DNA from: Pseudomonadota bacterium
GTDB taxonomy: Bacteria > Pseudomonadota > Gammaproteobacteria > Burkholderiales > Burkholderiaceae_C
Assembly: GCA_046050465.1 (NCBI GenBank)
Contig: JBJOPS010000036.1
Coordinates: 48,180-112,179 of the forward strand
Length of the DNA stretch: 64,000 nucleotides
Reading direction: 5' to 3'
Made by a program: the position numbers and the translations under genes. Below, one piece after another: positions 6,986-63,666 of the stretch (positions are counted from its first letter, which is position 1; every line of letters begins with the position of its first letter). The notes beneath the pieces were generated by a model, which saw nothing but the letters and a program-made list of their open reading frames with translations, ran no database searches and was not told the origin of the DNA.

Positions 6986-8158
6986 ATGAATGCATGTTCC
7001 ATTGAAACAGTTGCCATTAATCTTGCTGATCGTGGCTATCCCATTTTGATTGGCCCGGGACTTCTGAGTGATCCACAGACCTTTTCGTCTGTGTCAGGAT
7101 CGGCCACAGCCCTGATTGTGAGCAATACTTCAGTGGCGCCACTGTATGCCCAGCAACTGAAATTAGCCATCGCTGCCCGGTTCAAACAGGTGCACGTTGT
7201 GTCGTTGCCGGATGGTGAAAAATACAAAAACTGGCAAACCCTGCACCTGATTTTTGATGCCCTGCTGGAGAACAAGAGTGACCGCAAAACGGTACTTTTC
7301 GCCCTGGGTGGTGGCGTGGTGGGGGACATGACCGGCTTCGCAGCCGCCAGCTACATGCGTGGCGTGCCATTTGTGCAAGTGCCCACTACCTTGCTGGCTC
7401 AGGTAGATTCATCGGTTGGCGGCAAGACGGCGATCAACCACCCACTGGGCAAGAACATGATCGGTGCTTTTTATCAGCCCGTGAGAGTCATCTGCGATCT
7501 GGACACACTGAAGACGTTGCCAGTGCGTGAATTAAGTGCCGGGCTGGCCGAAGTCATTAAATACGGGCCGATTGCCGATATGGCATTTCTGGACTGGATT
7601 GAAACCAATATGGATGCCCTGTTGGCCCGCGAACCATCGGCGCTGGCCCATGCCGTCAAACGCAGTTGCGAAATCAAGGCCTGGGTGGTGGGACAGGACG
7701 AACGTGAGTCTGGTCTGCGTGCCGTTTTGAACTTCGGTCACACCTTCGGGCACGCCATTGAGGCGGGCATGGGTTATGGCCAATGGCTGCATGGCGAGGC
7801 TGTGGGCTGCGGCATGGTAATGGCTGCGCATCTTTCGCACCGTTTGGGTCTGATCGATAGTGCGCTGGTTAATCGGTTGACGACGCTGATTCAGCGCGCG
7901 GGTTTGCCCGTTGTCGGCCCCGATCTCACCGCGCAAAGTACACAAAGCAAAGGCATGGGCAAACCATCCGCCTTGGGTAGTGCATCAGACAATGCAGACC
8001 GCTATCTGGACTTGATGCGTGTTGATAAAAAGGCTGAAGCAGGTGAAATCAGATTTGTCGTGCTTGATGGCCCCGGGCGTGCTGCCGTGCGTGGCGCGCC
8101 CGACGCGCTGGTGCGTGAAGTCATTGACGCATGTTGTATGTTGATCGCTATCAAATAG
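6986..8158 (+). CDS. aroB: 3-dehydroquinate synthase
   Basis: Motifs [46 protein letters not shown] and HTFGHAIE. The ORF track starts at 6953; ATG 6986 ([23 protein letters not shown]) fits the family N-terminus. The stop codon lies inside repeat copy 1. Confidence 0.9.
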
Positions 8159-8201
8159 ATAGCTACTTGTGTATATTTTACGAGGGCTAAGGCCATATTT
8201 T
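8147..8201 (+). repeat. 55-nt interspersed repeat, copy 1
   Basis: GCTATcaaatagaTAGCTacttgtgtATATTttacgagGGCTAaGGCCatatttt, at the aroB 3' end and aroB-dgt spacer. Confidence 0.85.
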
Positions 8202-8209
8202 CTTATGAA

Positions 8210-9409
8210 ATGATGCTTCTGGCGCCTTACGCCTGTGACCCTGGCCAGACACGTGGCCGCCGCCATGCCGAACAGGCGGCCCCGAGCCGTACCGAGTATC
8301 AGCGGGACCGGGACCGCATCGTCCACTCCACGGCTTTTCGTCGCCTTGTCTACAAGACCCAGGTGTTCCTCAATCACGAGGGCGACCTGTTTCGCACGCG
8401 GCTGACGCATTCGCTGGAGGTTGCGCAACTGGGCCGCTCCATTGCACGGTCGCTGCGGCTGAATGAAGATCTGGTCGAGGCCATTTCGCTGGCGCACGAT
8501 CTGGGGCACACGCCCTTTGGTCATGCCGGGCAGGATGCCCTGAACGAATGCATGGCGGCACACGGCGGGTTTGAACACAACCTGCAAAGCCTGCGGGTGG
8601 TCGATCACCTGGAGGAGCGGTATCCGTCTTTCGATGGCCTGAACCTTACTTTCGAGACCCGGGAGGGCATTCTCAAACACTGCTCGCGCGCCAACGCCGA
8701 GCAGCTTGAGGCGGCGCAAGGGTTCGAAAGAAATTCCCGGGGCGGCATTGCCAGACGCTTCCTGGACCGCACACAGCCCGGTCTGGAGGCGCAACTTTGC
8801 AATCTGGCAGACGAGATTGCCTACAACGCCCACGATATCGACGATGGTGTGCGCTCGGGCCTGCTCACACTGGAGCAGTTGCAGGAAGTGCCTCTGGTCG
8901 AAGATTTTCGTGTGCAGACGCTGGCTGATCACCCGCACCTGAAAGACGCCGGGCAGGGACGCAGATTGCTGTATGAAACCATCCGGCGCATGCTCAGCGC
9001 CCAGGTGTATGACGTGATCGCGGCTACCCGGCGCGCACTGGATGCGCAAGCCCCTGCATCGGCAGATGCTGCACGGCAATTGCAGCCGCTGGTCCAGTTT
9101 GGCGACGATATGCGTCACCGGTCGCAGGTGCTCAAAAAGTTTCTTTTCCGCAATCTGTACCGGCACCCGCAGGTAGCGCACATGACCGGGCAAGCCCGGC
9201 AAGTGGTGCTTGAGCTGTTTGCTGCCTACTCCAGCGCGCCACAGGAAATGCAGACGGGTTTCGCAGCCCGCTCTGATGCCGCAAGCGGCGCTGCTGACGA
9301 AGCCCACACAGTCGCCCGCGTGGTGGCCGACTACATTGCGGGCATGACAGACCGCTTTGCGGCTCGTGAGCACGAACGCCTGACCGGGCGCAAACTCCTT
9401 GCCCCATGA
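8210..9409 (+). CDS. dgt: dGTP triphosphohydrolase-like HD-domain protein
   Basis: 399 aa with YQRDRDRIVHSTAFRRL, HSLEVAQLGR and HDLGHTPFGH motifs. Confidence 0.85.
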   Translation: MMLLAPYACDPGQTRGRRHAEQAAPSRTEYQRDRDRIVHSTAFRRLVYKTQVFLNHEGDLFRTRLTHSLEVAQLGRSIARSLRLNEDLVEAISLAHDLGHTPFGHAGQDALNECMAAHGGFEHNLQSLRVVDHLEERYPSFDGLNLTFETREGILKHCSRANAEQLEAAQGFERNSRGGIARRFLDRTQPGLEAQLCNLADEIAYNAHDIDDGVRSGLLTLEQLQEVPLVEDFRVQTLADHPHLKDAGQGRRLLYETIRRMLSAQVYDVIAATRRALDAQAPASADAARQLQPLVQFGDDMRHRSQVLKKFLFRNLYRHPQVAHMTGQARQVVLELFAAYSSAPQEMQTGFAARSDAASGAADEAHTVARVVADYIAGMTDRFAAREHERLTGRKLLAP

Positions 9410-9981
9410 CCGCACTGCCTGCCACCGCGATTGCGGATACTCGTCACTGGCTGGAACGCGCCGTCATTGGCCTGAATCTGTGTCCGTTTGCCAAAAGTGT
9501 GCACGTTAAAGGGCAGATTCACTATGCGGTCAGTGCGGCGACCAGCCCCCAAGAGCTGCTGGATGACTTAAAAAATGAGCTAAAAAGCCTTGTAGCCCTT
9601 GACAGTATTGCACGGGATACTACGCTTTTGATAGCGCCTGACTGTCTGGAAGATTTTCTCGATTTCAACGACTTGCTGTCCAAAGCAGATAAGGTGCTGA
9701 AGGCCCTGAAGCTGAACGGCACCATCCAGATCGCCAGTTTTCACCCGCAGTTTCAGTTCGCAGGCACAGCGGTGGACGACATCACCAACTGCACCAACCG
9801 CGCGCCGTATCCCACGCTACACCTGTTGCGTGAAGCCAGCATCGACCGCGCGGTGGAGGCCTTTTCGCAAGCCGAAACCATTTTTGAAGCCAACATGCAA
9901 ACGCTGGAGCAACTGGGCCATGCGGGCTGGGATGCGCTGGAGGTGGGGCCGTCCACCACGCGTGGCAAGATCAAGCCATGA
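9406..9981 (+). CDS. DUF1415 family protein
   Basis: 191 aa with LCPFA...ASFHPQFQFAG...NCTNRAPYPTLHLLRE, characteristic of DUF1415. 4-nt overlap with dgt. Confidence 0.75.
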   Translation: MTALPATAIADTRHWLERAVIGLNLCPFAKSVHVKGQIHYAVSAATSPQELLDDLKNELKSLVALDSIARDTTLLIAPDCLEDFLDFNDLLSKADKVLKALKLNGTIQIASFHPQFQFAGTAVDDITNCTNRAPYPTLHLLREASIDRAVEAFSQAETIFEANMQTLEQLGHAGWDALEVGPSTTRGKIKP

Positions 9982-10853
9982 AAGCCAAAAACAAATCGAC
10001 GCAGGAAGTGAAAACCCCGCCAGATGCTTCGTCCATTGCACCGGAAATCCGTCCCGGCCAGTCGGTGGAGTTGCTCAAAGAGCTGCACATCCTCACGCGG
10101 GAGGCCAAGCTCAACCAGGACTCGCGGCGCAAGCTCAAGCAGGTGTATCACCTGTTCCAGTTCATCGAAAAGCTGCTGCAGGAGCTGCCTGCGGGCGACG
10201 TCGGTATCACGCTGGCTGACCACGGCGCTGGCAAGTCGTATCTGGGGTTCATCATCTATGACCTGTTTTTCAAGGCGCTGAACGCAGGGCACATCTACGG
10301 CATCGAAACCCGCCCCGAGCTGGTTGAAAAGTCCCGTGAGCTGGCAAAACGCCTCGGGTTTGACCGCATGTCGTTCCTGAATCTGACGGTGGCTGAGTCT
10401 GCCCGGTCCGGCGAACTGCCCACGCAGATTGACGTTGTTACCGCCTTGCATGCATGCGATACCGCGACGGATGACGCCATCGCGTTCGGTTTGGCCAAGC
10501 ACGCCAAATTCATGGTGCTCGTGCCCTGCTGCCAGGCCGAGTTGGCTCGCCACCTGAATGCCGGCAAGGCACTTACCTTGAACCGCACGCCACTGGCCGA
10601 ACTCTGGCGCCACCCGCTGCACACCCGCGAGATGGGCAGCCAGATCACCAACGTGCTGCGCTGCCTGTACCTTGAAGCCATGGGTTACCAGGTGACCGTG
10701 ACCGAGCTGGTGGGATGGGAGCACAGCATGAAAAACGAATTGATTCTGGCGTGTTATACCGGGCAGAAAAAGCGCAGTGCGGCGCAGCGGCTGCAGGCGA
10801 TTGGGGCGGAGTTTGGGTTGGTGGAGTTGCTGCAGGCGCGGTTCAAAATATAA
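9978..10853 (+). CDS. class I SAM-dependent methyltransferase (Methyltransf_32-like)
   Basis: 291 aa with LADHGAGKSYLGF (SAM-binding G-x-G) and ALHACDTATDDAI. ATGA overlap with the upstream gene. Confidence 0.75.
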   Translation: MKAKNKSTQEVKTPPDASSIAPEIRPGQSVELLKELHILTREAKLNQDSRRKLKQVYHLFQFIEKLLQELPAGDVGITLADHGAGKSYLGFIIYDLFFKALNAGHIYGIETRPELVEKSRELAKRLGFDRMSFLNLTVAESARSGELPTQIDVVTALHACDTATDDAIAFGLAKHAKFMVLVPCCQAELARHLNAGKALTLNRTPLAELWRHPLHTREMGSQITNVLRCLYLEAMGYQVTVTELVGWEHSMKNELILACYTGQKKRSAAQRLQAIGAEFGLVELLQARFKI

Positions 10854-11141
10854 TCACGGATGCGCCTTGCGACTGCGTTGGTGCTCAAGATTTGCCCTCT
10901 TCCCCTCATGTAAACGAACAAAGTAAATGAAAGCCGGCATGCCGAAGTGGGGTATACCAATCACAGTTTCCAACCGATCTTGAATGCAAAGGTTGTCAAC
11001 CAAAGGTGTGCGTGCTCCCCGAATTGAAAACCGCGAAATTTCAACACCTAAATGTTTCAGAGTTCCCACGCAATGCGCCCTGGTGTCTTTGCCTGGCAAC
11101 GCCAGTGTCAGACCGCAGATGCGTCGCAGGTAATCAGTCAA
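10854..11141 (-). CDS. hypothetical 95-aa ORF (possibly a gene remnant or non-coding)
   Basis: Only ORF in the 322-bp gap after nagZ. TTG start, and about 55 percent GC at third codon positions (my rough hand count of its codons). I recognise no family. Confidence 0.25.
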   Translation of the reverse strand: MTDYLRRICGLTLALPGKDTRAHCVGTLKHLGVEISRFSIRGARTPLVDNLCIQDRLETVIGIPHFGMPAFIYFVRLHEGKRANLEHQRSRKAHP

Positions 11142-11175
11142 TCCCGACGGATGGTCTGCATTGCCACGCTTTGGA

Positions 11176-12258: not shown

Positions 12259-12307
12259 ATTATCAGTCGGTTGAGATGTTGTTCATTGGTAGAAGAAGTT
12301 GTCATAA

Positions 12308-12381
12308 GCTATAAAAATAATAGCTTATTATGCATATTCCATAAGGGCAAGATGCCAATTGAAGGGCTAGATGCCAATTTT
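12308..12381 (+). repeat. 55-nt interspersed repeat, copy 2 (tail block duplicated)
   Basis: GCTATaaaaataaTAGCTtattatgcATATTccataagGGCaAgatGCCaatt followed by gaagGGCTAgatGCCaatttt, in the nagZ-acpS spacer. Confidence 0.85.
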
Positions 12382-12780
12382 CTCCACAACACAAAAACTG
12401 GCAGCATAGTCTGCCTCGTCGGTCACGCTCACATGTGCTGTGAGTCCCCGGGCATCAAACCAGTCTTTGAGGCCGCCATACAGCACGATGCAGGGTTTGC
12501 CGGCGTTGGGGTGGTCCTGTGGCAGTGTGGCGATTTCGCACAGACGCCAGGTCATGGGCATGCGCATGCCCAGTCCAATCGCTTTGCTGAATGCTTCCTT
12601 GGCACTGAACCGCGTGGCCAGATACCGCACACCCCGCTCGGGCCAACGTGCGCTTCGCGCCGTCCAGGTGCTGAATTCGGCGTCGCTCAATACTTTTTTC
12701 GCGAACCGGTCGCCGTGGCGCTCCAGACTGGCACGTATACGGCGTACGTCGCAGATGTCGGTGCCAATACCGTAAATCAT
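12367..12780 (-). CDS. acpS: holo-[acyl-carrier-protein] synthase
   Basis: Start moved to the internal ATG giving [15 protein letters not shown], the family N-terminus. The ORF track extends to 12897. The stop codon lies in the tail of repeat copy 2. Confidence 0.85.
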
Positions 12781-12811
12781 GTTGGTGTGTCGTATCTGGA
12801 GGCGGCAAAGC

Positions 12812-13582: not shown

Positions 13583-13599
13583 GATCAGCGGGCATGGCT

Positions 13600-14376: not shown

Positions 14377-15358
14377 CAGCCCAACCCGATCGCACCTTGA
14401 CCCACAGCTCTAAAAACACCTTGGCATCGGCCAGTTTTTCCAGTTCCACCCGGGTTTCCATGCCGATACGCTTGATGCGTTCGCCCTTGTCGCCAATCAC
14501 CATGGCTTTATGACCGTCCCGCTCAACCACAATGGTGGCGGCGATGCGCAGCAGACGCTTGTGTCCCTTTTTCTGCGGCGGTTCTTCTTCAAACTTGTCG
14601 ATGATCACGGTCGAGGTGTAGGGCAACTCATCACCCGTCAGGCGAAACAGTTTTTCACGAACCAGTTCGCTGGCCAGAAATTTCTCGCTGCGATCGGTCA
14701 ACTCGTCTTCGGCGTACCACCAGGACTGCTCCGGCAGGAACCTGGCACATATATCCAGCAACCGTTCAACGTCTTTTGTATTTTTGGCCGACATGGGGAC
14801 AAACTCGGCAAAGCTGTGCTTTTCCTGCATGCTTTGCAGCCAGGGAGCGATATCACCCCGGCGATGCACGTTATCAAGCTTGTTGGCAATCAAGAGTGTT
14901 GGAATATTTTTGCCCAGCAATGCCAGCACGCGGGCATCTGCTGGTGTAAAACTGCCCGCTTCGACCACAAACAAAATGAGGTCCACATCTGCAACAGCAC
15001 CGACAACCGTCTTGTTCAGCGATTTGTTCAGCGCATTGGCATGCAGCGTTTGAAAGCCCGGTGTGTCAACAAATACAAACTGATTGACCCCCTGGGTGCG
15101 CATGCCGGTGATGCGGTGGCGAGTGGTCTGCGCCTTTCGGGAAGTAATGCTGATCTTCTGACCCACCAGCGCATTGAGCAAGGTGGATTTGCCTACATTC
15201 GGCTTGCCCACAATGGCAACCAGCCCACAATGCTGCCCTTGCACCGGCGTACCCGAGCCGGGCGCCACACGCACGCTCTTGAGCATGGTTTCAATATCAT
15301 TTTGGCCTTCGGCCCTTATTGGATCTGGGTTATTAGCTATATTTTTAGGAGCGTTCAT
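14339..15358 (-). CDS. era: GTPase Era
   Basis: G1 motif [24 protein letters not shown], and a C-terminal KH domain. The first 20 codons are encoded by repeat copy 3. Alternative start is ATG 15286 (MLKSV...). Confidence 0.9.
15299..15352 (-). repeat. 55-nt interspersed repeat, copy 3
   Basis: Minus strand: GCTCCtaaaaataTAGCTaataacccagatccaataaGGGCcgaaGGCCaaaat, at the rnc/era junction. Block spacing is the same as in copy 1. Confidence 0.7.
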
Positions 15359-16041
15359 CAGCGTGCCTTTGCTTTGAGTGTTTGCAGCATCGCAGCCGCG
15401 GCAGCCTGTTCACCTGCACGACGTGAACCACCGATTCCACGTTCGGTCACATTGAATTCCGTGACTTCACACTCAACATCAAATGTTTGTTTGTGGGCAA
15501 CACCCAGCGTGCCAACGACACGATAAATAGGCAGTTTCATTTTGCGCCTCTGCAGCCACTCCTGTAACTCGGTTTTGGCGTCTTTCCCGATGGCATCCAT
15601 CTGCGGGTTGATTTCTACGGCTTTGAAAAGACGGTGCACCAGACTTTGCGCTACGGCAAAGCCGGCGTCCAGATACACGGCACCAATCACCGCTTCCAGG
15701 GCATCCGCCAGAATAGACGGTCGCTTTTGCCCGCCAGAACGAACCTCCCCCTCGCCCAACCGGATCACTCCTGGCAAACCGAGGGTCACGGCCAGTTGGT
15801 GCAGGGTATCCTGTTTGACGAGGTTGGCACGCACCCGTGAAAGGTCGCCCTCCGGCAATTCACCCAAGCGCAAATACAGCAAATCCGCTACCGCCAGGTT
15901 CAACACCGAATCACCCAGAAACTCCAGGCGCTCATTGTGGTCAGCCGAGAAACTGCGGTGCGTAGTCGCCTGGCTCAATAGCGAGACATTGGCAAACTGA
16001 TGCTCCAACCGCTGCTGCAACGCAGCCAGCCCATCACTCAC
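15358..16041 (-). CDS. rnc: ribonuclease III
   Basis: 227 aa with the [12 protein letters not shown] signature and a dsRBD C-terminus. Confidence 0.92.
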
Positions 16042-16066
16042 GCTGCGAAGCCTTCATGCCTGCAGG

Positions 16067-22354: not shown

Positions 22355-22981
22355 TTAGCGGTTGGGCACCTCAAAAGTAGCATTACGCAGAAATCCGGCC
22401 GGCTTTTGCAAAGCCGACATTCCGCCAAACTGCTTGTGCGCGGCCAACAACTCATCCAGCCGTGGATCACGGATCATGATCTGGGGTTGCTCGAGCGCCA
22501 CCACGGCAGCCGCGACAGGGGGGGCCGCAGGTGCGGCTGCCAGGTTGACGGTTGGCGCGGTGTTGAGGCCACTTATCAGGCCCCATCCCACGGCGGCTAC
22601 GGCCGTGAGAGATGCCAGGCCTGCCACCGGTTTCCAGTGGAAGCGGGAAGCATTTGCACTACCTTTTTTAGTGTCAAATTGGCCAGTAGCCCACGTATTT
22701 ATTGCGTCAATAGCTATCAATTTAATAGCGTCTGATGATTGATCGGCTACCTCTTCACTCTTCAACCGGAGCTGCAGACGTGCAACAAATGCCAGATCAT
22801 TGTGACCGGCAGCATTTCCCGAGCGCAGCACGTCGCCCACCACGTGGTAGGCATGCCAGGTTGCGCGGGCATCATCGTCCTTGCTGACGGCTTCAACCAC
22901 CCGCGCAAACTCCTGCCCGCGCAACTGGCCGTCAGCCAGTGCGGAAATCGCTTCGCGCGTTTTCAACGTGTCGTTTGTCAT
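22355..22981 (-). CDS. rseA: anti-sigma-E factor, RseA/MucA-like
   Basis: 208 aa with an N-terminal anti-sigma domain (REAISALADGQL...WHAYHVVGDVLR), one TM segment and a periplasmic tail. Contains repeat copy 4 in frame. Confidence 0.7.
   Translation of the reverse strand: MTNDTLKTREAISALADGQLRGQEFARVVEAVSKDDDARATWHAYHVVGDVLRSGNAAGHNDLAFVARLQLRLKSEEVADQSSDAIKLIAIDAINTWATGQFDTKKGSANASRFHWKPVAGLASLTAVAAVGWGLISGLNTAPTVNLAAAPAAPPVAAAVVALEQPQIMIRDPRLDELLAAHKQFGGMSALQKPAGFLRNATFEVPNR
22676..22729 (-). repeat. 55-nt interspersed repeat, copy 4 (variant core), inside rseA-like CDS
   Basis: Minus strand: GCTATtaaattgaTAGCTattgacgcAATAAatacgtGGGCTActGGCCaattt. Confidence 0.85.
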
Positions 22982-26479: not shown

Positions 26480-27437
26480 GACAAAGCCCTTTTACCTCGA
26501 TCAGACTGGCAGGATCAAAAAGAGGCAGGCCGGTCATCCCGGCGTCAATGCGCTTGACCATACCCGTCAGCACCTTGCCCGGACCGCATTCCACCACGGT
26601 TGTCAAGCCACGTGCCTTGATGGCCTGCACACACTCGACCCAGCGAACCGGTCCGAACGCCTGACGATAAAGCGCGTCACGGATGCGCTGCGCATCCATC
26701 TCCACCGCCACATCGATGTTGTTCACCAGCGCTACCTGCGGCGCGGCGAAGGTGATTGACGCCAGCTCGTGCTTCAATTTGTCGGCCGCGGGTTTCATCA
26801 GGCTGGAATGAAAGGGCGCCGACACCGGCAGCGGCAAGGCCCGTTTGGCACCGTTTGCCTTGAGAAGCTCACACGCTTTCTCGACGGCGGCCTTGCTGCC
26901 CGCGATGACGGTTTGGGCCGGATCGTTGAAATTGACTGCCTCCACGATTTCGTGGGCGTTTTCAATGCCAAAAGCTCGCATGGCCCCCGTCACTTCTGCG
27001 CAACCAGCTATTACTCTTGTAGCATCCATGCCCAGAATGGCGGCCATGGCCCCGGTTCCCACCGGCACCGCCTCCTGCATGGCCTGCGCCCGAAAACGCA
27101 CCAGCGGTGTGGCTTGAGCCAGCGTCAACACGCCCGCGGCCACCAGCGCCGAATATTCTCCCAGCGAATGCCCGGCCACAGCCTGGGGCGCAACGCCGGT
27201 CTCGGCCATCCAGACCCGATAAGCGGCCACAGCAGCCACCAGCATCACGGGCTGGGTGTTGGTGGTCAGCGCCAGGGCTTCTTTCGGACCGTCATGGATG
27301 AGTTGAGCCAGGTCTTCACCCAGCGCATCAGATGCTTCCAGCAAGGTCTGCCTGACCACGGGGTGGTCGCCCCAGGCGTCGAGCATACCGACGGACTGGG
27401 AGCCTTGCCCCGGAAAAACAAATGCGAAAGGTTTCAT
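26472..27437 (-). CDS. fabD: malonyl-CoA:ACP transacylase
   Basis: 321 aa with FPGQGSQ and GHSLGEYSAL. Confidence 0.92.
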   Translation of the reverse strand: MKPFAFVFPGQGSQSVGMLDAWGDHPVVRQTLLEASDALGEDLAQLIHDGPKEALALTTNTQPVMLVAAVAAYRVWMAETGVAPQAVAGHSLGEYSALVAAGVLTLAQATPLVRFRAQAMQEAVPVGTGAMAAILGMDATRVIAGCAEVTGAMRAFGIENAHEIVEAVNFNDPAQTVIAGSKAAVEKACELLKANGAKRALPLPVSAPFHSSLMKPAADKLKHELASITFAAPQVALVNNIDVAVEMDAQRIRDALYRQAFGPVRWVECVQAIKARGLTTVVECGPGKVLTGMVKRIDAGMTGLPLFDPASLIEVKGLCHE

Positions 27438-27460
27438 TGAATTTGCCGAAATTACAGGTT

Positions 27461-27514
27461 AAATGAGGCCTTATCCCTCGTGGAATATGCGTAAACAGCT
27501 ACAAATTCAGGAGC
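27461..27514 (-). repeat. 55-nt interspersed repeat, copy 5
   Basis: Minus strand: GCTCCtgaatttgTAGCTgtttacgcATATTccacgagGGaTAaGGCCtcattt, at the fabH 3' end and fabH-fabD spacer. Confidence 0.85.
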
Positions 27515-28476
27515 ACAGCGCCCCACGTGAAACCACCGCCCACACCTTCAAGCATGAGCAGTTGACCTGGCTTGACGCGGCCTGCACGCACACCGGCGTC
27601 CAGTGCCAGCGGAATCGACGCTGCCGATGTGTTGCCATGTTGGTCCACCGTCACGATCACTTTATCCATCGGCAGCTTGAGTTTTTTGGCTGTACTTTGC
27701 ATGATGCGGATATTGGCCTGGTGCGGAATCACCCAGTCGATATCGGCCTCTAGCCTGTCGGCTTTGGCCAACACCGTGCGGGCCGCCTGCTCCAGAACAC
27801 CCACCGCCAGCTTGAACACCGCCTGCCCATCCATCTTGAGGAACGGGTCACCCAGCACCTGGCCGCCTGATACGTGGCCCGGCACGCACAAAATGCCCAC
27901 GTGTTTGCCATCCGCGTGCAAATCACTGGCCAGAACACCCGGCGTGCTGGAAGCCTCCAGCACCACCGCACCGGCGCCATCACCGAACAGCACACAGGTG
28001 GTGCGGTCCCTGAAATCCAGAATGCGGGAGAAAATTTCCGAGCCGATCACCAGCGCCTTGTTTGCGACACCAGTTTGAATCATGGCGTCGGCAATCGTCA
28101 GCGCGTAAACAAAGCCGCTGCACACCGCCTGCACGTCAAACGCGGCGCCGCCCGGTGCGCCCAGCTTGTGCTGCACGATGCACGCCGTGGACGGAAAAAC
28201 CATGTCCGGCGTGGAGGTGGCCACGATGATCAGATCAATATCCCTGGCGTGCACACCTGCTGCCTGCAGGGCCTGTTTGGCGGCTGCGGTGGCCAGATCG
28301 CTGCAAACCACGTCGGTCGCTGCGAAATGCCGGGCCCGGATACCGGTGCGCTCGACAATCCATTCGTCCGAGGTTTCCACACCGGTCGCAGCCAACTCGG
28401 CTACCAGATCGGCATTGGTCAGGCGACGGGGAGGCAAGTAACTGCCGGTTCCGGTGATGCGGGAATATCGTCTCAT
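27499..28476 (-). CDS. fabH: 3-oxoacyl-ACP synthase III
   Basis: 325 aa with AVCSGF, HQANIRI and GNTSAASIP. The stop codon lies in repeat copy 5. Confidence 0.92.
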
Positions 28477-31866: not shown

Positions 31867-32907
31867 CTATCGAAGGGCGGGAACGGCCTTCGCTGCGCGC
31901 ACACTGCCCTCGCCGATGGCTGCACCAAAACGCTTGACCAGCCGCTCGGCCACGTTCTCGCGCAGTGTGTAGTCCACAATTTCTTCGGCCTTTACCACCT
32001 CGCGAGCCACGTAATCCAGGTTGCCCAGTTCGTCTGCCAGTCCAAGGGAAATGGCCTGCTGCCCACTCCAGAACAGACCACTGAAGGTCTCTGGCGTTTC
32101 GTTCAGGCGCTTGCCGCGGCCGCTCTTCACGGCATCAATGAACTGTTTGTGGATTTCATCCAGCATGGTTTGGGCAAACACACGTTGCGTTTCAGTCTGC
32201 GGGCTGAAAGGATCGAGAAAGCCCTTGTTGGCGCCCGCCGTCATCAGGCGGCGCTCCACGCCGAGCTTGTCCATCAGGCCGGTAAAGCCAAAACCATCCA
32301 TCAGCACGCCAATGCTGCCGACGATGCTGGCCTTGTCCACAAAAATCCTGTCGGCAGACACGGCGATGTAATAGGCTGCCGATGCGCACGATTCCTCAAC
32401 CACTGCATAGACGGGCTTCTTATGAAGTTCCTTGAGCCGTCGTATCTCGTCGTTGATGATGCCGGCCTGAACCGGGCTGCCACCGGGGGAATTAATCAGC
32501 AACACAACGGCCTGCGCGCCGTTGTCCTCAAAGGCGCTACGCGCGGCCGCCACCACAAACTCCGCACTGGCCTCAGCCCCGGAGGCAATCTCGCCCTTGA
32601 TTTGTACCACTGCGGTATGCACAGAGGACACATCGGCTGACGGCCCGCTGCGACTCATCATCGCCCAGGCCATAAAGATAAAAAACGCCAGCCAGGCCAG
32701 GCGCACAAAGGTACGCCAGCGCCGCGTGGCCCGCTGTTCGTCCAGCGCGGCAAATGCCAGTTTCTCCAGCGTCGAGCGTTCCCAGCCGGGTTGATCGATC
32801 ACGCCTGGTTTAGCTATGTTTTTTGTAGCTTCTTGCACATATTCAATGGGGCCTTCAGGCCGATTTGGCTCTGAATTTTGGTCTTCCTGGCGTATGGGAT
32901 CAGTCAT
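31867..32907 (-). CDS. sppA: signal peptide peptidase SppA, 36K type (S49)
   Basis: 346 aa with an S49 core (LLINSPGGSPVQ...AASAAYYIAVSADRIF). The N-terminal 30 codons cover repeat copy 6. Alternative in-frame GTG start at 32802. Confidence 0.85.
   Translation of the reverse strand: MTDPIRQEDQNSEPNRPEGPIEYVQEATKNIAKPGVIDQPGWERSTLEKLAFAALDEQRATRRWRTFVRLAWLAFFIFMAWAMMSRSGPSADVSSVHTAVVQIKGEIASGAEASAEFVVAAARSAFEDNGAQAVVLLINSPGGSPVQAGIINDEIRRLKELHKKPVYAVVEESCASAAYYIAVSADRIFVDKASIVGSIGVLMDGFGFTGLMDKLGVERRLMTAGANKGFLDPFSPQTETQRVFAQTMLDEIHKQFIDAVKSGRGKRLNETPETFSGLFWSGQQAISLGLADELGNLDYVAREVVKAEEIVDYTLRENVAERLVKRFGAAIGEGSVRAAKAVPALR
32813..32866 (+). repeat. 55-nt interspersed repeat, copy 6
   Basis: GCTATgttttttgTAGCTtcttgcacATATTcaatgGGGCcttcaGGCCgattt, between the Rieske gene stop and the conserved part of sppA. 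Confidence 0.85.
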
Positions 32908-40777: not shown

Positions 40778-41589
40778 CGCATCGATTCTATCGAGGCCAC
40801 TGTGTCGGCCAGCGTCGGGCGTGACTCGCAAACAACACCAAATCCGGCTTGCCGGGCTGCCGCGGCGATCCGCGCGTGGGTAACCACGGCACGCGCCCGT
40901 TGCCAACTTTGCGCGGGCAGCAGCGCAGTCAGATTCACTATCGCCTGCGAACTGCTGAACAGCCAGACCGATTCATCCGTTGCGGCGCAGACCGCCAGGC
41001 TGCGTTCGGCATCACCCCATGGCGGCAGGCATCGCCGGTACGTGGCGATCAGATCAACATGCGCCCCGGCTCCCTGGAGCTGGCTGGCAAACCAGTCGCG
41101 CCCGACGCCTGCACTGCTTTGCAGGTCAGAACCATCCTGACCCCGCACGATCAGGAACCGCTGATCGGCTTTCACGCTGGCGCCCATCACGTGCCACAGG
41201 GCTTCTGAATCAAATTGGCCCGCCTCGGGCGACGGTGCCTCAATGAAACCGGCCTCCACACCAGCCTTTAGCAGCGCCCGAACGGTACCGGGCCCCGTCG
41301 CCAGTGCTTTTGTCAGTGTTATACTTTTAATAGCGAACTGCGCAATGAATACGGGGGCTAAAGCCGGTTTTTGCATGAAAAAATGCTCAACTGCATTGCC
41401 ACTGACAAACATCACACCGCTGTAGCTGGCGATACGGCTCCAGGCCTGGCGGATGGGTTCAGGATCAGCCACCGGCTTGACTGCAATCAGTGGCAACGCC
41501 ACCGCATCCAGTCCTGCGGCCACCATCGCATCGACCCAGGGGGCCGCGTCGCGCGCTGGCCGGGTAACGATGACCCGCATGACCATCAA
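40774..41589 (-). CDS. hemD: uroporphyrinogen-III synthase
   Basis: 271 aa with [11 protein letters not shown]...[10 protein letters not shown]. Position after hemC. Contains repeat copy 7 (antisense) in frame. Confidence 0.8.
41318..41372 (+). repeat. 55-nt interspersed repeat, copy 7 (variant core), inside hemD CDS, antisense
   Basis: GtTATacttttaaTAGCgaactgcgcAATGAatacgGGGGCTAaaGCCggttttt. The closest relative is copy 4. Confidence 0.8.
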
Positions 41590-49500: not shown

Positions 49501-51355
49501 CTTGCCTTTGTTGGCGGGTGACTCCCTGCGTAGCCGCATCAAGCAGGTGGCCTCGGGCCGCTTCGGTGTGACCGCGGAGTACCTGTCCAGTGCTGACCAG
49601 ATCCAGATCAAGATGGCCCAGGGCGCCAAGCCCGGCGAAGGCGGCCAGCTGCCCGGTGGCAAGGTGTCCGACTACATTGGCAAGCTGCGTCACTCGGTGC
49701 CTGGTGTGGGCTTGATTTCGCCCCCGCCGCACCACGACATCTATTCGATCGAAGACTTGGCCCAGCTGATTCACGATCTGAAGAACGTGGCGCCGCACTC
49801 CGGCATCAGCGTGAAGCTGGTGTCCGAAATCGGTGTGGGCACGATTGCCGCCGGCGTTGCCAAGTGCAAGGCCGACCACGTGGTGATTGCCGGGCACGAC
49901 GGTGGCACCGGCGCTTCACCCTGGTCCTCCATCAAGCATTGCGGTAGCCCCTGGGAAATCGGCCTGGCCGAAACCCAGCAAACGCTAGTGCTGAACCGCC
50001 TGCGCAGCCGTATCCGCGTGCAGGCCGATGGCCAGATGAAGACCGGCCGTGACGTCGCCATCGGCGCGCTGCTGGGCGCCGACGAATTCGGCTTTGCCAC
50101 TGCACCGCTGGTGGTGGAAGGCTGCATCATGATGCGCAAGTGCCACCTGAACACCTGCCCCGTGGGTGTGGCCACGCAAGACCCCGTGCTGCGCGCCAAG
50201 TTCTCCGGCAAGCCTGAGCATGTGGTGAACTACTTCTTCTTCATTGCTGAAGAAGTGCGCCAGATCATGGCCCAGCTCGGCATTCGCAAGTTCGACGACC
50301 TGATTGGCCGCTCGGACCTGCTGGACACCCGCAAGGGCATCGAGCACTGGAAGGCCCAGGGCCTGGACTTCGCTCGCCTGTTCGCGCAGCCGCAAGTGCC
50401 GGCCGACGTGCCCCGCTTCCAGACGCTGACACAAGACCACGGCCTGGAAAAAGCCCTGGACAACGTGCTCATCGCCAAGAGCCGACCGGCTATTGACAAG
50501 GGTGAGCGTGTGCAGTTCATGGAAGTGGCCCGCAATGTGAACCGCTCCGTGGGGGCCATGCTCTCCGGCGCGGTCACCAAGGTGCACCCTGAGGGCTTGC
50601 CGGATGACACCATCCGCATTCAGCTCGAAGGCACGGGAGGCCAGTCTTTTGGCGCGTTCCTGACTCGCGGTATCACGCTCTACCTGATCGGTGACGCCAA
50701 TGACTACACCGGCAAGGGCCTGTCAGGTGGCCGCGTGGTGGTGCGACCCAGTATCGACTTCCGTGGCGATGCCATTCGCAACACGATTGTCGGCAATACC
50801 GTGATGTACGGTGCCACGACAGGGGAGGCCTTCTTGAGCGGTGTGGCCGGTGAACGCTTCGCGGTCCGTTTGTCTGGTGCGACAGCGGTGGTGGAAGGCA
50901 CGGGCGACCACGGCTGTGAATACATGACTGGCGGCACCGTTGCGGTGTTGGGCAAGACCGGCCGCAACTTCGCCGCCGGCATGAGCGGTGGCATTGCCTA
51001 TGTGCTTGATGAGGACGGCCAATTCGCCAAGCGCTGCAACACCGCCATGGTCAGTCTGGAAAAAGTGCTGACTACCAAAGAGCAGGAAACCAGCCTCGAC
51101 AAGGCTATCTGGCACCGTGGCGAGAGTGATGAAGCGCAGCTCAAGAAGTTGCTGGAGGATCACAACCGCTGGACCGGCAGCAAGCGTGCCCGCGAGTTGC
51201 TGGACACCTGGGACACGTCACGGGCCAAGTTCGTCAAGGTATTCCCCAATGAGTACAAGCGTGCTCTGGGCGAGATGCATGCAAAGAAAGTGGCCACAGC
51301 CCCCGTAAAATCTGCGCCGACAGCTACAAAAAAAGAAGCAGAACCCGCCAAGTAA
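46583..51355 (+). CDS. gltB: glutamate synthase large subunit
   Basis: 1590 aa with an N-terminal CGVGFVA amidotransferase, the FMN domain and the GXGXG C-domain. Confidence 0.97.
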
Positions 51356-55100: not shown

Positions 55101-55852
55101 ATAAGGTTATCGGGTGGCAATTTGCTATAAAAAAAATAGCTGAACGTGCCTGCCTGCTGACGGGCATTCTGGGCATTGCCCTTTTGACGGGCTGCGCCAC
55201 AGGTCCCAACGCGAACCCCAGGGATCCTTGGGAGCCCTACAACCGCAACATGACCAAATTCAACGAGGCGGTGGATGGCGCTGTTTTGAAGCCCGCCGCA
55301 ACGGCCTACAAAACCGTAACGCCCGCCGTGGTTCGCACAGGTCTGAGTAATTTCTTTGGCAACTTGACACAGCTGTGGACGGCCTTGAATGGCGCGTTGC
55401 AGCTCAAGGGTGAGGTAGCTGCCGTCAGTCTCGTGCGCTTCAATGTCAATTTTTTCTTCGGCTTTGGCGGCGTGCTGGATCTAGCCAGTGAGATCCATCT
55501 TGAACGTTACAGAGAAGATTTTGGTCAAACACTGGGGCGCTGGGGTGTACCAACCGGTCCGTATTTTGTGTTGCCCATTTACGGACCATCCACATTGCGG
55601 GATGCGCTGGCCTTTGGTGTGGAGTCACAGGCAGATCTGGTTGGTCAATTGAACGATGGCACGGTTCGCGAGGCCTTGTATGTCCTGCGCGCACTGGAAT
55701 TGCGCGCCAATCTGTTGCGTGCTGGAGACGTGCTGGATGAAGCAGCACTGGATAAATACACGTTTGCGCGCGACGTGTTTTTGCAGCGCCGTGAGAGCCA
55801 GGTATTTGATGGGCTTGAGCGTGAGTCCAAAGATGAACCGGTTGATCAATAG
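55097..55852 (+). CDS. mlaA: outer-membrane lipoprotein MlaA/VacJ
   Basis: 251 aa with lipobox LLTGC and the PWEPYNR...FN motif. GTG start overlapping the mlaD stop. Confidence 0.8.
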   Translation: MNKVIGWQFAIKKIAERACLLTGILGIALLTGCATGPNANPRDPWEPYNRNMTKFNEAVDGAVLKPAATAYKTVTPAVVRTGLSNFFGNLTQLWTALNGALQLKGEVAAVSLVRFNVNFFFGFGGVLDLASEIHLERYREDFGQTLGRWGVPTGPYFVLPIYGPSTLRDALAFGVESQADLVGQLNDGTVREALYVLRALELRANLLRAGDVLDEAALDKYTFARDVFLQRRESQVFDGLERESKDEPVDQ

Positions 55853-60142: not shown

Positions 60143-60786
60143 TCACGCTCGCCCTGTCAAAGGGCCGCATTTTTGACGACACCTTGCCCCTGCTCAAGGC
60201 CGCAGGCATCGAGGTGCTGGAAGACCCCGAAAAATCCCGCAAACTCATTCTCACCACCAACCAGCCCGATGTACGGGTGCTGGTGGTGCGAGCAACCGAC
60301 GTGCCAACCTATGTGCAATACGGCGGTGCAGACCTGGGCATCACCGGCAAAGACACCCTGCTGGAGCATGGTAGCGAGGGGCTCTACCAGCCGCTGGACC
60401 TGCAAATCGCCAAGTGCCGAATCAGCGTGGCGGTGCGCGCAGATTTTGACTATGCATCCGCCGTCAAGCAGGGTTCACGGCTGACAGTGGCAACCAAATA
60501 CGTGGCTATCGCCCGCGAGTTTTTCGCGGCCAAGGGCGTGCACGTGGACCTGATAAAGCTCTACGGCAGCATGGAACTCGCGCCGCTCACCGGTTTGGCG
60601 GACGCGATTGTCGATCTGGTCTCCACCGGCAATACGCTCAAGGCCAACCATCTGGTGGAGGTGGAGCACATCATGGACATCAGCTCCCGGCTGGTGGTGA
60701 ACCAGGCTGCGCTCAAGCTCAAGCAGGGACCGATTCGCAAAATCATCGATGCGTTTTCGGCAGCGGTGAAGCTGGCTAATCCCTGA
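60139..60786 (+). CDS. hisG: ATP phosphoribosyltransferase (short form)
   Basis: 215 aa with LALSKGRI...[19 protein letters not shown]. Confidence 0.92.
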
Positions 60787-60801
60787 TATTCTTTTAAAGT
60801 C

Positions 60802-60855
60802 GCTATGAATTTGGTAGCTTCTCCCGCATATCTGTCAACGGCTGACAGCCAGTTT
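60802..60855 (+). repeat. 55-nt interspersed repeat, copy 8 (tail diverged)
   Basis: GCTATgaatttggTAGCTtctcccgcATATCtgtcaacGGCTgacaGCCagttt, at the hisG-hisD junction. Confidence 0.65.
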
Positions 60856-62151
60856 GATGCCAAATTCAAGACACGACTGCATTGGTCGGCCGATGCCGAT
60901 GCGGCCATTGAACAGCGCGTGGCTGACATCCTGGCGGACGTGCAGCAGCGGGGCGATGCCGCCGTGCTGGAATACACCAACCGGTTTGATGGCCTTGTAG
61001 CCACCGCCATGACCGAGCTGGAATTGACGCAGGCTGAATTGAAAGCGGCGTTTGAGTCCATTCCCGCCGCCCAGCGTGATGCGCTGCAAGCCGCAGCCAG
61101 CCGGGTACGCACTTATCACGAGGCACAAAAGAAGGCTTGTGGCGAAAGCTGGAGCTACCGCGACGAAGACGGCACGCTGCTGGGCCAGAAGGTCACGCCG
61201 CTGGACCGCGTGGGTATTTATGTGCCCGGCGGCAAGGCCGCGTATCCCTCGTCCGTGCTGATGAATGCCATCCCCGCGCACGTGGCGGGTGTGGGCGAAA
61301 TCATCATGGTGGTCCCTACGCCAGCTCGCCAAGATGGCACCTCACCCGGTGCCAAGGGCGAGAAAAACGCGCTGGTGCTGGCCGCAGCCTATGTGGCAGG
61401 CGTCACACGTGCCTTCACCGTGGGCGGTGCGCAGGCTGTTGCCGCGCTGGCCTACGGCACGGCCACCATTCCTACAGTGGACAAGATCACCGGCCCCGGC
61501 AATGCCTACGTGGCTGCCGCAAAACGGCGGGTATTTGGCACCGTGGGAATCGACATGATCGCCGGCCCGAGTGAAATTCTGGTTTTGGCTGATGGCAGCA
61601 CGCCAGCGGATTGGGTTGCGATGGACCTGTTCAGTCAGGCCGAGCACGACGAGCTGGCGCAAAGCATTTTGCTGTGCCCCGATGCGGCCTACATCGCCCA
61701 GGTGCAAGCTTCCATCGACCGTTTGCTCAACGACATGCCGCGCGCCGCCATCATCGCCAAAAGCCTGACGGACCGCGGCGCACTCATCCACACCCGCAGC
61801 ATGGAAGAGGCGTGCTCTTTATCAAACCGCATTGCCCCCGAGCACCTGGAGGTGAGCAGCCGCGACCCGTATCGCTGGGAGCCGCTGCTCAAACATGCGG
61901 GCGCCATCTTTCTGGGCGCCTACACCAGTGAGTCGCTGGGTGATTACTGCGCGGGCCCCAACCACGTGCTGCCCACCAGCGGCACTGCACGTTTCTCCAG
62001 CCCGCTGGGCGTTTATGACTTCCAGAAGCGCAGCAGTTTGATCGAGGTCAGCGAAGCAGGTGCGCAAAAGCTGGGAAAAATTGCCGCCGAGCTGGCCTAT
62101 GGCGAAGGCCTGCAAGCCCACGCGCGGGCGGCGGAAATGCGTTTGAAATAA
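60805..62151 (+). CDS. hisD: histidinol dehydrogenase
   Basis: 448 aa with [30 protein letters not shown] and SQAEHDE. The start codon lies in the loop of repeat copy 8. Confidence 0.93.
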
Positions 62152-62192
62152 CTGGAAAAGTAAGAATCGCCGCGCCAGGACGACCACTTCCC

Positions 62193-62585
62193 ATGCGTAC
62201 AACGAACTTCCCCGGCTTTTTGTCCACTCCCCGATACTGGCTGCGTGCGCTGTGCCTGCTGGCCATTGGAATTTCCGTCGTGCTGCCCGCTACAGCCATG
62301 AGCATCCGCGACCTGCGCGCGCTGGAGAAATCCGACAAAAAGCAGGGCGAAAACTACGTGCGCTACTACCTGGTCGGTGCGATGGAAGGCGCCTTGGAGG
62401 CCCACGCCCAGGGCGTGCGCAATGGTGCCAAACCCGCCATCTGCCTCAACGGCCGCAAGCTCGAGCCGCGCATGGCGCAGTCGATTTACACCACCGAACT
62501 GCAGCGCAATGCTGGCGTGTACGAAGCCGACATGCCCGTGCCCCTCGTGCTCACCAACGCGCTGGCGACGGTTTATCCTTGCTAG
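62193..62585 (+). CDS. secreted hypothetical protein, possibly Rap1a/Tai4-like fold
   Basis: 130 aa with a signal peptide (LCLLAIGISVVLPATA). Its mature part ends ...ICLNG....LVLTNALATVYPC, a pattern I associate with Rap1a-type immunity proteins. This is a weak assignment from memory. Confidence 0.5.
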   Translation: MRTTNFPGFLSTPRYWLRALCLLAIGISVVLPATAMSIRDLRALEKSDKKQGENYVRYYLVGAMEGALEAHAQGVRNGAKPAICLNGRKLEPRMAQSIYTTELQRNAGVYEADMPVPLVLTNALATVYPC

Positions 62586-62620
62586 CGCCAGCTTGGGGCG
62601 GTGCCAATTGCGCATAATTT

Positions 62621-62675
62621 GCTATCGATTCAATAGCTACTCGCACATATTTGGCGAAGGTCAGAGGCGCTTTTT
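62621..62675 (+). repeat. 55-nt interspersed repeat, copy 9
   Basis: GCTATcgattcaaTAGCTactcgcacATATTtggcgaaGGtCAgaGGCgcttttt, between the convergent hypothetical gene and mrr. It is flanked by a tail-like block (62594-62610) and a head-like GCTAT (62676-62680). Confidence 0.85.
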
Positions 62676-62691
62676 GCTATTAAATCCGCTG

Positions 62692-63624
62692 TTATGCAGC
62701 TTCTTCGTCGAAGTAGTCACCGTCGATTTTTGGGATTTTGACTGCTCGAGCGGTTACCCCGAGTTCATATTCGATCATTAGCCCCGCGAGGCGGGCTCCA
62801 TCCATCAAAACGATGCCTTCCACGGATTTTGCAAAGTCCAAAGCCTGCGCCGTGAATGCTGATGTTGTAATGAATACGCCTTTCTTCGCCTTCTGGCCAG
62901 CCAAGGCCCCGTAGAAGGCCTGAAGCTCAGGCCGCCCAACATTGCTTTGCCACCGCTTGGCCTGGACATACACCTTTTCAAGGCCCAGCCTGTCTAGAGA
63001 GATGACTCCGTCGATTCCTGCGTCACCGGAGCCGCCGACGCGTTGAAGGTCGGTACGGCTTGCTCCGTAGCCCATACGATGGAGGAGATCCAAGACAATC
63101 GCCTCGAAGAATGCAGGCGAGACGTTGGCCAATAGTTCTAGCAATTCGGATTCGGCTGCCTGGCGAAGTTCCTCAAGTGCCTGGCCCAATCGATCATCGG
63201 GGCTGGCAAGTGGCACGGCCTGCTTTGTGAAGGGTACTGAAGGCGCGGTGGCGGAATGATGTGTGGGAGGCGCGTCTTTTAACTTGACACCGATATAGCC
63301 CATTGCGAGCTTCTCTGCGAGTTCTGGAGAGAATGAATTCGGATGCTCACTGATGAAGGCGATTCCTTCTTCGGTGATTTTCCAGAAGCCTCTGCGCGGG
63401 CTACTCGAGAGGCCAGCTCGCTTTAGCCTGTCATGTGCCCAGCCAGCGCGATTCTTGTAGATCAGTTGCGCCCCGCTGGGCAGAAGCTCTTGCCGGTCAT
63501 CCTCGGTCAGTCCGAGAGCTACGGCCGCCTGGTCGTGGGACTGCTTCGCCAATACACCAGCCGGATTTGCGGCCAAGTGTCGCAACAACGGCTCGATAAA
63601 CTGGTCGTAAGTAGGAACTGGCAT
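62692..63624 (-). CDS. mrr: Mrr type IV (modification-dependent) restriction endonuclease
   Basis: 310 aa, collinear with E. coli Mrr as I recall it: MPVPTYDQFIEP, YKNRAGWAHDRLKRAGL, SPDDRLGQALEELR, and QRVGGSGDAGIDGVISLDRLGLEKVYVQAKRWQSNVGRPELQAFYGALAGQKAKKGVFITTS. Confidence 0.9.
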   Translation of the reverse strand: MPVPTYDQFIEPLLRHLAANPAGVLAKQSHDQAAVALGLTEDDRQELLPSGAQLIYKNRAGWAHDRLKRAGLSSSPRRGFWKITEEGIAFISEHPNSFSPELAEKLAMGYIGVKLKDAPPTHHSATAPSVPFTKQAVPLASPDDRLGQALEELRQAAESELLELLANVSPAFFEAIVLDLLHRMGYGASRTDLQRVGGSGDAGIDGVISLDRLGLEKVYVQAKRWQSNVGRPELQAFYGALAGQKAKKGVFITTSAFTAQALDFAKSVEGIVLMDGARLAGLMIEYELGVTARAVKIPKIDGDYFDEEAA

Positions 63625-63633
63625 GTTGTGGTG

Positions 63634-63666
63634 GCAATGAAGACGGTGGGTTGAGCGGCCTAATTT
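63634..63666 (+). repeat. 55-nt interspersed repeat, partial copy 10 (core plus tail only)
   Basis: GCAATGAAgACGgTGGGtTgagcGGCCtaattt aligns with the variant core and tail of copies 4 and 7. Lies just upstream of the mrr start. Confidence 0.5.

Follow-up and report, generated by a model that had tools for sequence, protein, structure and literature searches.

What is the short, hairpin-bearing sequence that recurs about once per 6 kb, between genes and within them, in a 64,000-nucleotide stretch of the genome of a member of the Pseudomonadota (GenBank assembly GCA_046050465.1, contig JBJOPS010000036.1, positions 48,180 to 112,179; hereafter the window)? An earlier note on this DNA had claimed an unrecognised interspersed repeat family, which is confirmed here by a covariance model, an external profile and shuffled sequences, and which probably consists of short, non-autonomous repeats that a mobile DNA element, long resident in the Comamonadaceae, has left behind. 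The covariance model (R1), built from nine window copies, scores these at 51-68 bits (E 1.6e-13 to 1.8e-9) and adds two weaker copies, at 33 bits in fabD and at 31 bits in gltB (Table 1). A second profile, built only from copies of other genomes and run on the window with nhmmer, returns ten copies at E < 1e-4, both weaker ones included, and the rnc/era copy at E 0.03. All nine full copies described earlier are recovered at E <= 2e-9, six on the plus and three on the minus strand as had been counted, and the total of 11 copies per 64 kb is distributed 6:5 over the strands. The hairpin pattern GCTAT-N7-RTAGC, with at most one mismatch, yields 24 strand-hits where 2.6 are expected, a number reached in none of 100 shuffles; enrichment over shuffled controls, whose absence had been named beforehand as grounds for discarding the family, is hence present in the window.

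The repeat unit is oriented, sharp at both ends and 68-69 nt long, rather than the ~55 nt first described, with the consensus (A/G)nTT GCTAT nnAWTTn RTAGC TGCTyGCGCATATTCCACGnGGGCTAGAGGCC nATTTGRY nnnn AAA. An AT-rich hairpin (GCTAT-N7-RTAGC) comes first, followed by the conserved core (TGCTyGCGCATATTCCACG), the GC-rich block (GGGCTAGAGGCC) and a tail running from a T-run to AAA. In 188 copies anchored on the hairpin, information content exceeds background from position -4 and is back down after +64; the hairpin begins 4 nt from the left end, and the GC-rich palindromic block lies ~15-25 nt from the right end. The third block of the earlier description, GGGCTAnnGGCC plus a T-run, is real, but the unit runs ~12 nt further, to the conserved AAA; the hairpin loop, claimed to be 8 nt, has 7, the N8 pattern being at chance level, and a supposed partial copy at 63634 is found neither by R1 nor by the external profile. 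Mean GC content is 44% in the copies versus 61% in the surrounding loci. The copies are single at each site, without tandem arrays, and no inverted doublets of the REPIN/BIME type were seen, opposite-strand matches within ~100 nt being only self-matches of the palindromic hairpin. Among the 102 copies not selected by the search pattern described below, position 13 of the RTAG (positions 13-16) that precedes the GC-rich segment is G in 33 and A in 68. A perfect stem, GCGCTT-N7-AAGCGC, marks a minority subfamily of the repeat. Open frames occur on both strands of the consensus, and the hairpin encodes A-I-x-x-I-A in either orientation.

The family is distributed across many genera of the Comamonadaceae. 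The window itself encodes a LepA that is identical to a protein of a metagenome-assembled genome (MAG) labelled 'Pseudomonadota bacterium', and the matches that follow, at 96-97% identity, include MAGs labelled Rhodoferax sp. At least 120 stretches in a genome collection matched an exact hairpin-plus-core pattern, and the matches listed, which amount to 875 kb, come from Rhodoferax/Albidiferax, Polaromonas, Curvibacter, Acidovorax, Hylemonella, Giesbergeria, other Comamonadaceae and unclassified beta- or proteobacterial MAGs, the lone exception being one MAG labelled Asaia. R1 finds 187 copies in the 875 kb, 65 of them outside the ascertainment pattern. Genera with the repeat on chromosomes or plasmids are Rhodoferax, Polaromonas, Curvibacter, Acidovorax, Hylemonella, Giesbergeria, Comamonas, Delftia and Diaphorobacter. 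A copy is carried by 6 of 72,556 plasmids, all six from Comamonadaceae, and phage records gave no match. Against this stands an unselected set of 80 metagenome loci, chosen only for an Era protein 79-93% identical to that of the window, in which 38 copies are spread over 903 kb and most loci have none; abundance is therefore lineage-specific. The closest relatives have ~5 copies per 22 kb, and a figure of hundreds of copies per genome is an extrapolation from local density only. Compared with the earlier note, the spread over many Comamonadaceae genera, the age of the copies and the lack of structural covariation are new.

Occupancy of individual sites differs between lineages. A Polaromonas locus (L043) is syntenic with the window from 11.3 to 18 kb and has the acpS/nagZ copy in common with it, and carries further copies at era/recO and pdxJ/recO, two junctions that are empty in the window. 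Among the 80 relatives, four junctions (acpS/nagZ, era/recO, recO/pdxJ and rnc/era) differ widely in length, the genes being close together or overlapping in some relatives and some 60-130 nt further apart in others. The repeat explains the longer spacers at acpS/nagZ and, for part of the lineages, those at era/recO and rnc/era; relatives with short rnc/era junctions are devoid of a copy. Eighteen lineages have a copy at acpS/nagZ, oriented alike in all of them, with spacers of 60-111 nt; many others have none there, and their spacers measure -1 to 29 nt. At one site, in the type I restriction gene hsdR, insertion can be followed to the nucleotide: the empty allele of R. ferrireducens reads ...AGTTAC ATG GCG ACT GGC..., whereas the filled alleles of R. 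lithotrophicus and of a metagenome read ...AGTTAT [element, antisense] AGCT ACT GG..., a net gain of 54 nt, in frame and without duplication. R1 gives 44 and 57 bits on the filled alleles and nothing on the empty one. Read in the direction of the element, the empty site is GCCAT|GTAAC, with GCCAT preceding the insertion point; of the 68-nt consensus, ~5 nt on the 5' side and ~7 nt on the 3' side thus coincide with sequence that was already there. The HsdR loop between GFEAKLK and YQVGYAQHLRDALP is a hot spot (homologues P0241-P0360; L071:4566-4800); it is missing entirely in Polaromonas JS666-type proteins and carries an extra ATGDGxxxPHRAEFAPP in R. ferrireducens, with others adding the element on top; the L071 HsdR has a further 27-residue insert near aa 830.

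The small size, high copy number, sharp ends and spacer location of the 68-nt unit would suit a conventional cut-and-paste MITE derived from an insertion sequence with a DDE transposase. The ends of the unit speak otherwise: terminal inverted repeats are absent, the left AnTTGCTAT and the right ...AAA being unrelated in end logos of 188 copies (which also bears out the earlier statement that long terminal inverted repeats are lacking), direct repeats of 2-8 nt flanking the unit are not in excess in 165 copies, whatever the boundary offset, and the hsdR comparison shows no duplication either. A MITE origin is thus largely refuted and retains hardly any probability.

The genomic context of 189 copies was assigned with a codon-model gene caller written for this analysis and checked on the window; the gene calls in the other loci also come from this caller. 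There are 52 copies between convergent genes, 48 between co-directional genes in sense and 31 in antisense orientation, and 9 between divergent genes; 39 lie wholly inside open reading frames (ORFs; 21 antisense, 18 sense) and 10 at a locus edge. Measured against background spacers (129 convergent, 544 co-directional, 122 divergent), the 52, 79 and 9 copies are enriched between convergent genes and scarce between divergent ones (chi2 36, p 1e-8). Stop codons of upstream genes on the same strand cluster between -21 and +12 of the left end of the repeat, often as the TAG of the 3' arm or within the loop, and stop codons of genes on the opposite strand cluster at its right end. The ~20% of copies inside ORFs are in frame. 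Copies survive where they are least harmful: next to stop codons, in the spacers of operons, where convergent genes meet and, in frame, in tolerant parts of proteins; the locations given in the earlier note (operon spacers, convergent pairs, inside ORFs) hold for the window copies.

Many copies occupy operon spacers, immediately following the stop codon of one gene and ending shortly ahead of the start of the next, and the 3' half of the repeat contains a short GC hairpin followed by a T-run, so that a cis-acting RNA element of the mRNAs could be envisaged, which might weakly terminate or attenuate transcription, stabilise 3' ends, be processed by an RNase or space operon genes for translational coupling. 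A slight sense excess in co-directional spacers (48 to 31, p 0.07) would fit such a role, which is nevertheless improbable, as antisense, convergent and in-ORF copies are preserved as well as sense ones and as the proposed helices show no covariation. In the 102 copies not selected by pattern, pairing occurs in 88.8% of the hairpin cells versus 89.0% in column shuffles, in 54.2% versus 53.4% for the GC-rich palindrome 20-28/36-44 and in 68.3% versus 70.2% for the small GGC/GCC stem of the earlier note, and none of four candidate helices covaries; the check for covariation of the head hairpin that had been proposed thus comes out negative. Since pairing equals that of column shuffles, the hairpin arms are conserved as sequence, without compensatory change. 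Deviations confined to the 5' arm occur in 24 copies and those confined to the 3' arm in 7 (p 0.003). The arms decay independently after insertion, so the structure is not maintained in resident copies. Folding energies of the window copies are on average no lower than those of shuffles (z-scores -2.5 to +0.8), and no related Rfam family exists. No simple consensus of a terminator (a GC-rich stem of at least 5 bp plus a T-run) or of a sigma-70 promoter (-35/-10 hexamers) was found at copies in the 20 kb scanned (8000-27999, with six of the 11 copies), where no listed site overlaps a copy, so the earlier claim that the hairpin is not a terminator stands. Sigma-54, sigma-E, DnaA-box, IHF and dif-like readings were dropped by eye for wrong spacing or poor fit.

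A discrete unit that occurs on either strand, with lineage-specific occupancy, one clean insertion, no duplication and no maintained pairing, is best read as REP-like in behaviour, and it looks like mobile DNA rather than a regulatory signal. Its copies would have been moved in trans by an enzyme encoded elsewhere. The absence of inverted termini and of duplications, a variable 5' arm facing a near-invariant 3' arm, and GCCAT at the empty hsdR site make a single-strand, hairpin-guided insertion next to a GCYAT-like target the most likely mechanism, as in IS200/IS605 and REP/RAYT systems with their HUH tyrosine enzymes. The invariant ATAGC of the element would pair with the GCYAT target in the manner of a guide and its target, and some copies may later have been co-opted as coding or spacer sequence. 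Strand data, comprising a within-locus orientation concordance of 105 same versus 77 different (p about 0.03) and a 6:0 distribution on a plasmid of R. antarcticus, weakly support such a mechanism. On that plasmid (L205, Rhodoferax antarcticus NZ_CP019241.1, 8593-31911) all six copies within 23 kb lie on one strand, although gene direction changes four times; toxin-antitoxin genes are frequent in this stretch, which also holds two IS1634 transposases. The proximity of IS1634 and IS91 transposases to plasmid copies is coincidental, because the copy of plasmid pKV29 lies inside a YbiB-like gene. A bolder proposal, put forward tentatively, is that the family represents a new type of hairpin-guided single-strand element, in which ~54 nt are inserted, the ATAGC-GCYAT pairing makes the target part of the repeat, a not-yet-recognised Comamonadaceae enzyme moves it, and peptides are donated, over long periods, to proteins that are essential or conserved (Era, HemD, RseA, GltB, FabH, HsdR and YbiB-like).

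Several observations weigh against a mobile origin. No transposase or autonomous parent was found in the loci examined, nor was a Y1 transposase between inverted copies, where the ORFs are unrelated genes; all 137 of 137 core matches in the 875 kb, a small sample, lie within complete short modules, so that no split ends were seen. The 6:5 distribution in the window is not the strong replication-strand bias expected of IS200/IS605-type insertion. Nucleotide resolution is available for a single filled/empty pair, whose alleles are ~83% identical as proteins, and several in-ORF copies add little or no length compared with distant homologues. Pairwise identity between copies has a median of 59% and a 95th percentile of 73%, and no near-identical pair with different flanks was seen, hence recent movement is not shown. 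That many genera share one consensus calls for a source active over a long time or for selection. Finally, the rate of change of some intergenic copies is far below that of 4-fold sites: between the window and a relative (L121), 4-fold degenerate sites are 38% diverged, whereas the shared copies differ by 14.5% at fabH/fabD (present also in L122 and L124), ~10% at acpS/nagZ, 21.7% in rseA and 31.9% at rnc/era, and the first two, changing 2.5-4 times slower than 4-fold sites, could reflect a host function. The same could be meant by the acpS/nagZ copy of the 18 lineages, whose arms are 12-22% and positions 36-49 23-31% diverged at a 4-fold divergence of 0.3-0.6, compared with 50-58% in loop, flank and tail, a comparison that profile-based detection biases towards the conserved arms. 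As for a separate group of copies on one locus (L052, at 3617, 5089 and 6962, all minus), their flanks are similar, with ccgatgg.tgctgccatgcg... upstream and ...CAATCCGCCTTCACTC.GCGAAGGG downstream, which suggests tandem paralogous genes with a copy behind each of them, that is segmental duplication rather than transposition.

The slow change of such copies, a single consensus across genera, arms conserved as sequence and the lack of a strong preference in gene orientation are what would be expected of a host-maintained DNA site, in which GCTA(T)-N7-(A)TAGC and the GGCTAGAGGCC block are bound by a conserved Comamonadaceae protein (nucleoid-associated, topoisomerase-like or similar) and kept by selection; E. 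coli REP/BIME elements bind gyrase and IHF. This reading, which is compatible with a mobile origin, is unlikely, as many related lineages have few copies or none, the rnc/era copy has decayed to 15 bits in two relatives (L121 and L122), and no protein is known to bind the site. The 3' half, which was not under selection by the search, is 0.19-0.22 diverged in eight orthologous pairs versus 0.27 at 4-fold sites, which is near neutral. Constraint is mixed, with many copies drifting and some constrained.

How does the family, taken as mobile DNA, relate to the repeats already described in bacteria? With REP/REPIN sequences (associated with RAYT) it shares a short, very abundant, hairpin-containing unit without terminal inverted repeats or target duplication, a location at gene 3' ends and in operon spacers, scarcity in promoter regions and long persistence in a bacterial lineage; the RTAG (GTAG in about a third of the copies) before an imperfect GC-rich palindrome may correspond to the GTAG (or CGTC) conserved at one end of REP palindromes. 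REPs, however, are GC-rich palindromes of 20-40 nt, while this unit is oriented and 68 nt long, its invariant hairpin is AT-rich and its long core is not palindromic; moreover, it forms no inverted doublets, ~20% of its copies lie in ORFs, and no RAYT gene, which REPs usually flank, was found in the loci examined. A 2010 RAYT survey mentions no Comamonadaceae genus and describes the one betaproteobacterial RAYT that it treats (Thauera) as without counterpart in other betaproteobacteria; Comamonadaceae are absent from surveys of REP/RAYT and of tagged palindromes. PATEs, which derive from IS200/IS605 and transpose as single-stranded DNA, are likewise asymmetric at their ends, with subterminal hairpins and neither inverted termini nor duplication, and insert next to a short sequence paired with an internal guide, to which the target-side GCYAT, complementary to the ATAGC of the element, would correspond here on the strength of one empty site and the asymmetry in arm conservation. 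They differ in that no parent insertion sequence or TnpA was found here, in a small sample, and in that the strand bias is weak (6:5 in the window, 6:0 on one plasmid).

RPEs are selfish short repeats that, like the present ones, lie in frame in protein-coding genes and are translated as extra peptide segments, but they are unrelated in sequence and restricted to Rickettsia, the matches listed for the present family in genomes, plasmids and metagenomes being from Comamonadaceae apart from the MAG labelled Asaia; they are about 100-150 bp long and palindromic over their whole length, whereas most copies here are intergenic and the unit is not a full-length palindrome. The Correia/NEMIS and dRS3/NIME repeats of Neisseria are also small betaproteobacterial spacer repeats, and dRS3 resembles the present unit in that two short inverted arms enclose a spacer of fixed length. 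The present family has neither the 26-bp inverted termini of Correia elements, with their TA duplication, nor the 20-bp unit of dRS3, which flanks variable repeats, and it is not known to resemble either in sequence. A literature search by organism, by repeat terms and by the core sequence turned up only the Beta-proteobacterial repeat element (BRE), a different repeat of ~90 bp with 64-79% GC, often in tandem arrays (Hot et al., 2011; PMC3110155). It is a small repeat reported from Polaromonas, Rhodoferax, Acidovorax and Delftia, where it lies in intergenic regions and at times within genes (PMC3110155), and, by its description, it differs from the 68-nt, ~44% GC, singly occurring family. The published BRE description is fitted by an unrelated GC-rich repeat of ~90-110 nt (GCCCCCACGC...CTGCCCCCCGAGGGGG...GGGGCGGCCCGGCG), which fills the era/recO spacer in many relatives (L125, L126 at ~10880-10965, L128, L140, L141, L143, L150, L151, L168, L183 and L191) and is absent from the window apart from one chance-level match.

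The family thus fails defining features of REP (unit type, doublets), MITE (termini, duplication) and BRE (length, GC, arrays), and the earlier judgement that it is not REP/BIME, ERIC, Correia or RPE is upheld. It may also still be called unrecognised: Rfam 15 gives no gathering-score match in the window and no match at a copy, at E up to 10, in 60750-62720; the literal core sequence is absent from the papers searched, and no earlier description of the repeat was found in that literature, which leaves out most subscription-journal papers, so a prior report is possible.

Copies within genes affect RseA, HemD, Era, GltB, FabH, HsdR and a YbiB-like protein. The peptide of the hemD copy is recognisable in all but one of 12 aligned HemD homologues (59-94% identity), hence this copy is ancient; the segment is present in all close homologues, and there is consequently no empty allele to compare, solved HemD structures being too distant to size the insert. 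At rnc/era, the frame is kept without indels in four relatives (L121-L124) despite 32% divergence. The YbiB-like gene contains copies in Curvibacter, Rhodoferax and the Delftia plasmid pKV29. This YbiB-like (TrpD2) copy (L039:2050-2118, L011:2106-2174, L002 at ~1350, L207:4001-4069) encodes VLAALGIPAQAAIKKIANGE and aligns with the native segment in YbiB proteins of known structure and adds no length to it, the protein being 4 residues shorter there; AT-rich rare codons point to an origin from the element, but the copy looks like a replacement rather than a net insertion.

The copies of the window are listed in Table 1.

Table 1. Repeat copies and a solo hairpin in the 64,000-nt window
Feature	Position	Strand	Location and orientation	Evidence
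Copy 1	8142..8210	+	between aroB and HD-domain dGTPase-like gene, sense to both	R1 68.4 bits, E 1.6e-13; nhmmer E 1.4e-10; Pfam neighbours
Copy 2	12303..12382	+	between acpS and nagZ, antisense to both	R1 51 bits
Copy 3	15289..15357	-	rnc/era junction, sense	R1 57.2 bits
Copy 4	22666..22734	-	inside rseA, sense, in frame, aa 83-106 SDAIKLIAIDAINTWATGQFDTKK	R1 68.2 bits; translation
Copy 5 (weaker)	26960..27028	-	inside fabD, sense, in frame MDATRVIAGCAEVTGAMRAFGIEN	R1 33.2 bits, E 2.7e-5; nhmmer E 1.3e-6; translation
Copy 6	27451..27519	-	between fabH and fabD, sense	R1 62.5 bits; Pfam
Copy 7	32808..32876	+	between Rieske-protein gene and sppA, antisense	R1 64 bits; Pfam; gene call
Copy 8	41313..41381	+	inside hemD, antisense, in frame, aa 70-93	R1 55.2 bits; translation
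Copy 9 (weaker)	51287..51344	-	antisense, C-terminal tail of gltB (large glutamate synthase subunit) ORF	R1 30.6 bits, E 1.1e-4; nhmmer E 1e-5; translation
Copy 10	60797..60865	+	between hisG and hisD, sense	R1 57.7 bits; Pfam
Copy 11	62616..62684	+	between 130-aa ORF (+) and mrr (-), convergent	R1 61.5 bits; gene calls; Pfam Mrr
Solo hairpin GCTATAAAAAAAATAGC	55124..55140	.	mlaD/mlaA junction, rest of module absent	exact GCTAT-N7-RTAGC

Several of these copies supply start or stop codons to their neighbours. The TAG stop of aroB lies within the hairpin loop of copy 1, with the ATG of the next gene at the last base of the copy, the hairpin of copy 6 holds the last five fabH codons plus the TAG stop, and the loop of copy 10 holds the ATG at which the longest hisD ORF starts. 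Copy 3 falls within the longest era ORF, whose ATG overlaps the rnc TGA, and would form an N-terminal extension; copy 7 falls within the 5' end of the longest sppA ORF. Copy 4 lies in a hypervariable linker after RseA_N (Pfam, aa 9-84), the alignment of which is too variable to define boundaries. The 5' half of the fabD copy encodes VIAGCAE, lining up with IAKACEE of E. coli FabD, and only ~10 extra residues follow, so it is not a simple 23-codon insertion either. The tail of copy 2 contains a 19-nt tandem duplication (12345-12382; GGGCAAGATGCCAATTGAA / GGGCTAGATGCCAATTTTC), the second unit of which carries or overlaps the acpS stop codon, and which is missing from the orthologous copy in L121-L124. 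The profile matches the solo hairpin in its hairpin part only (E 0.6); it is possibly a remnant. Elsewhere in the window, mrr (62692-63624, an Mrr-type restriction endonuclease) adjoins copy 11 downstream of the his genes, overlapping ORFs without a Pfam match occupy both strands at 62.1-62.6 kb, and GC content is 51-52% at 1-8000 and 16001-20000 versus 57-63% elsewhere, with a positive GC skew in the first 8 kb. The skew follows the gene strand in the window and gives no replication direction.

For the Comamonadaceae, the repeat is a counterpart to the REP, RPE and Correia elements of other bacteria, and if the density in the window holds genome-wide, it would make up ~1% of the DNA in the richest lineages. 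Because it is unannotated, gene callers read its copies as N-terminal extensions, C-terminal tails or internal segments of proteins (Era, FabH, HisD, GltB, RseA, HemD). The dispersed copies may be a source of recombination, and they could serve as a phylogenetic or typing marker and as a natural record of protein regions that tolerate an insert of 18-23 residues. The mobilising enzyme, once found, would show whether hairpin mechanisms with target pairing occur outside IS200/IS605 and RAYT.

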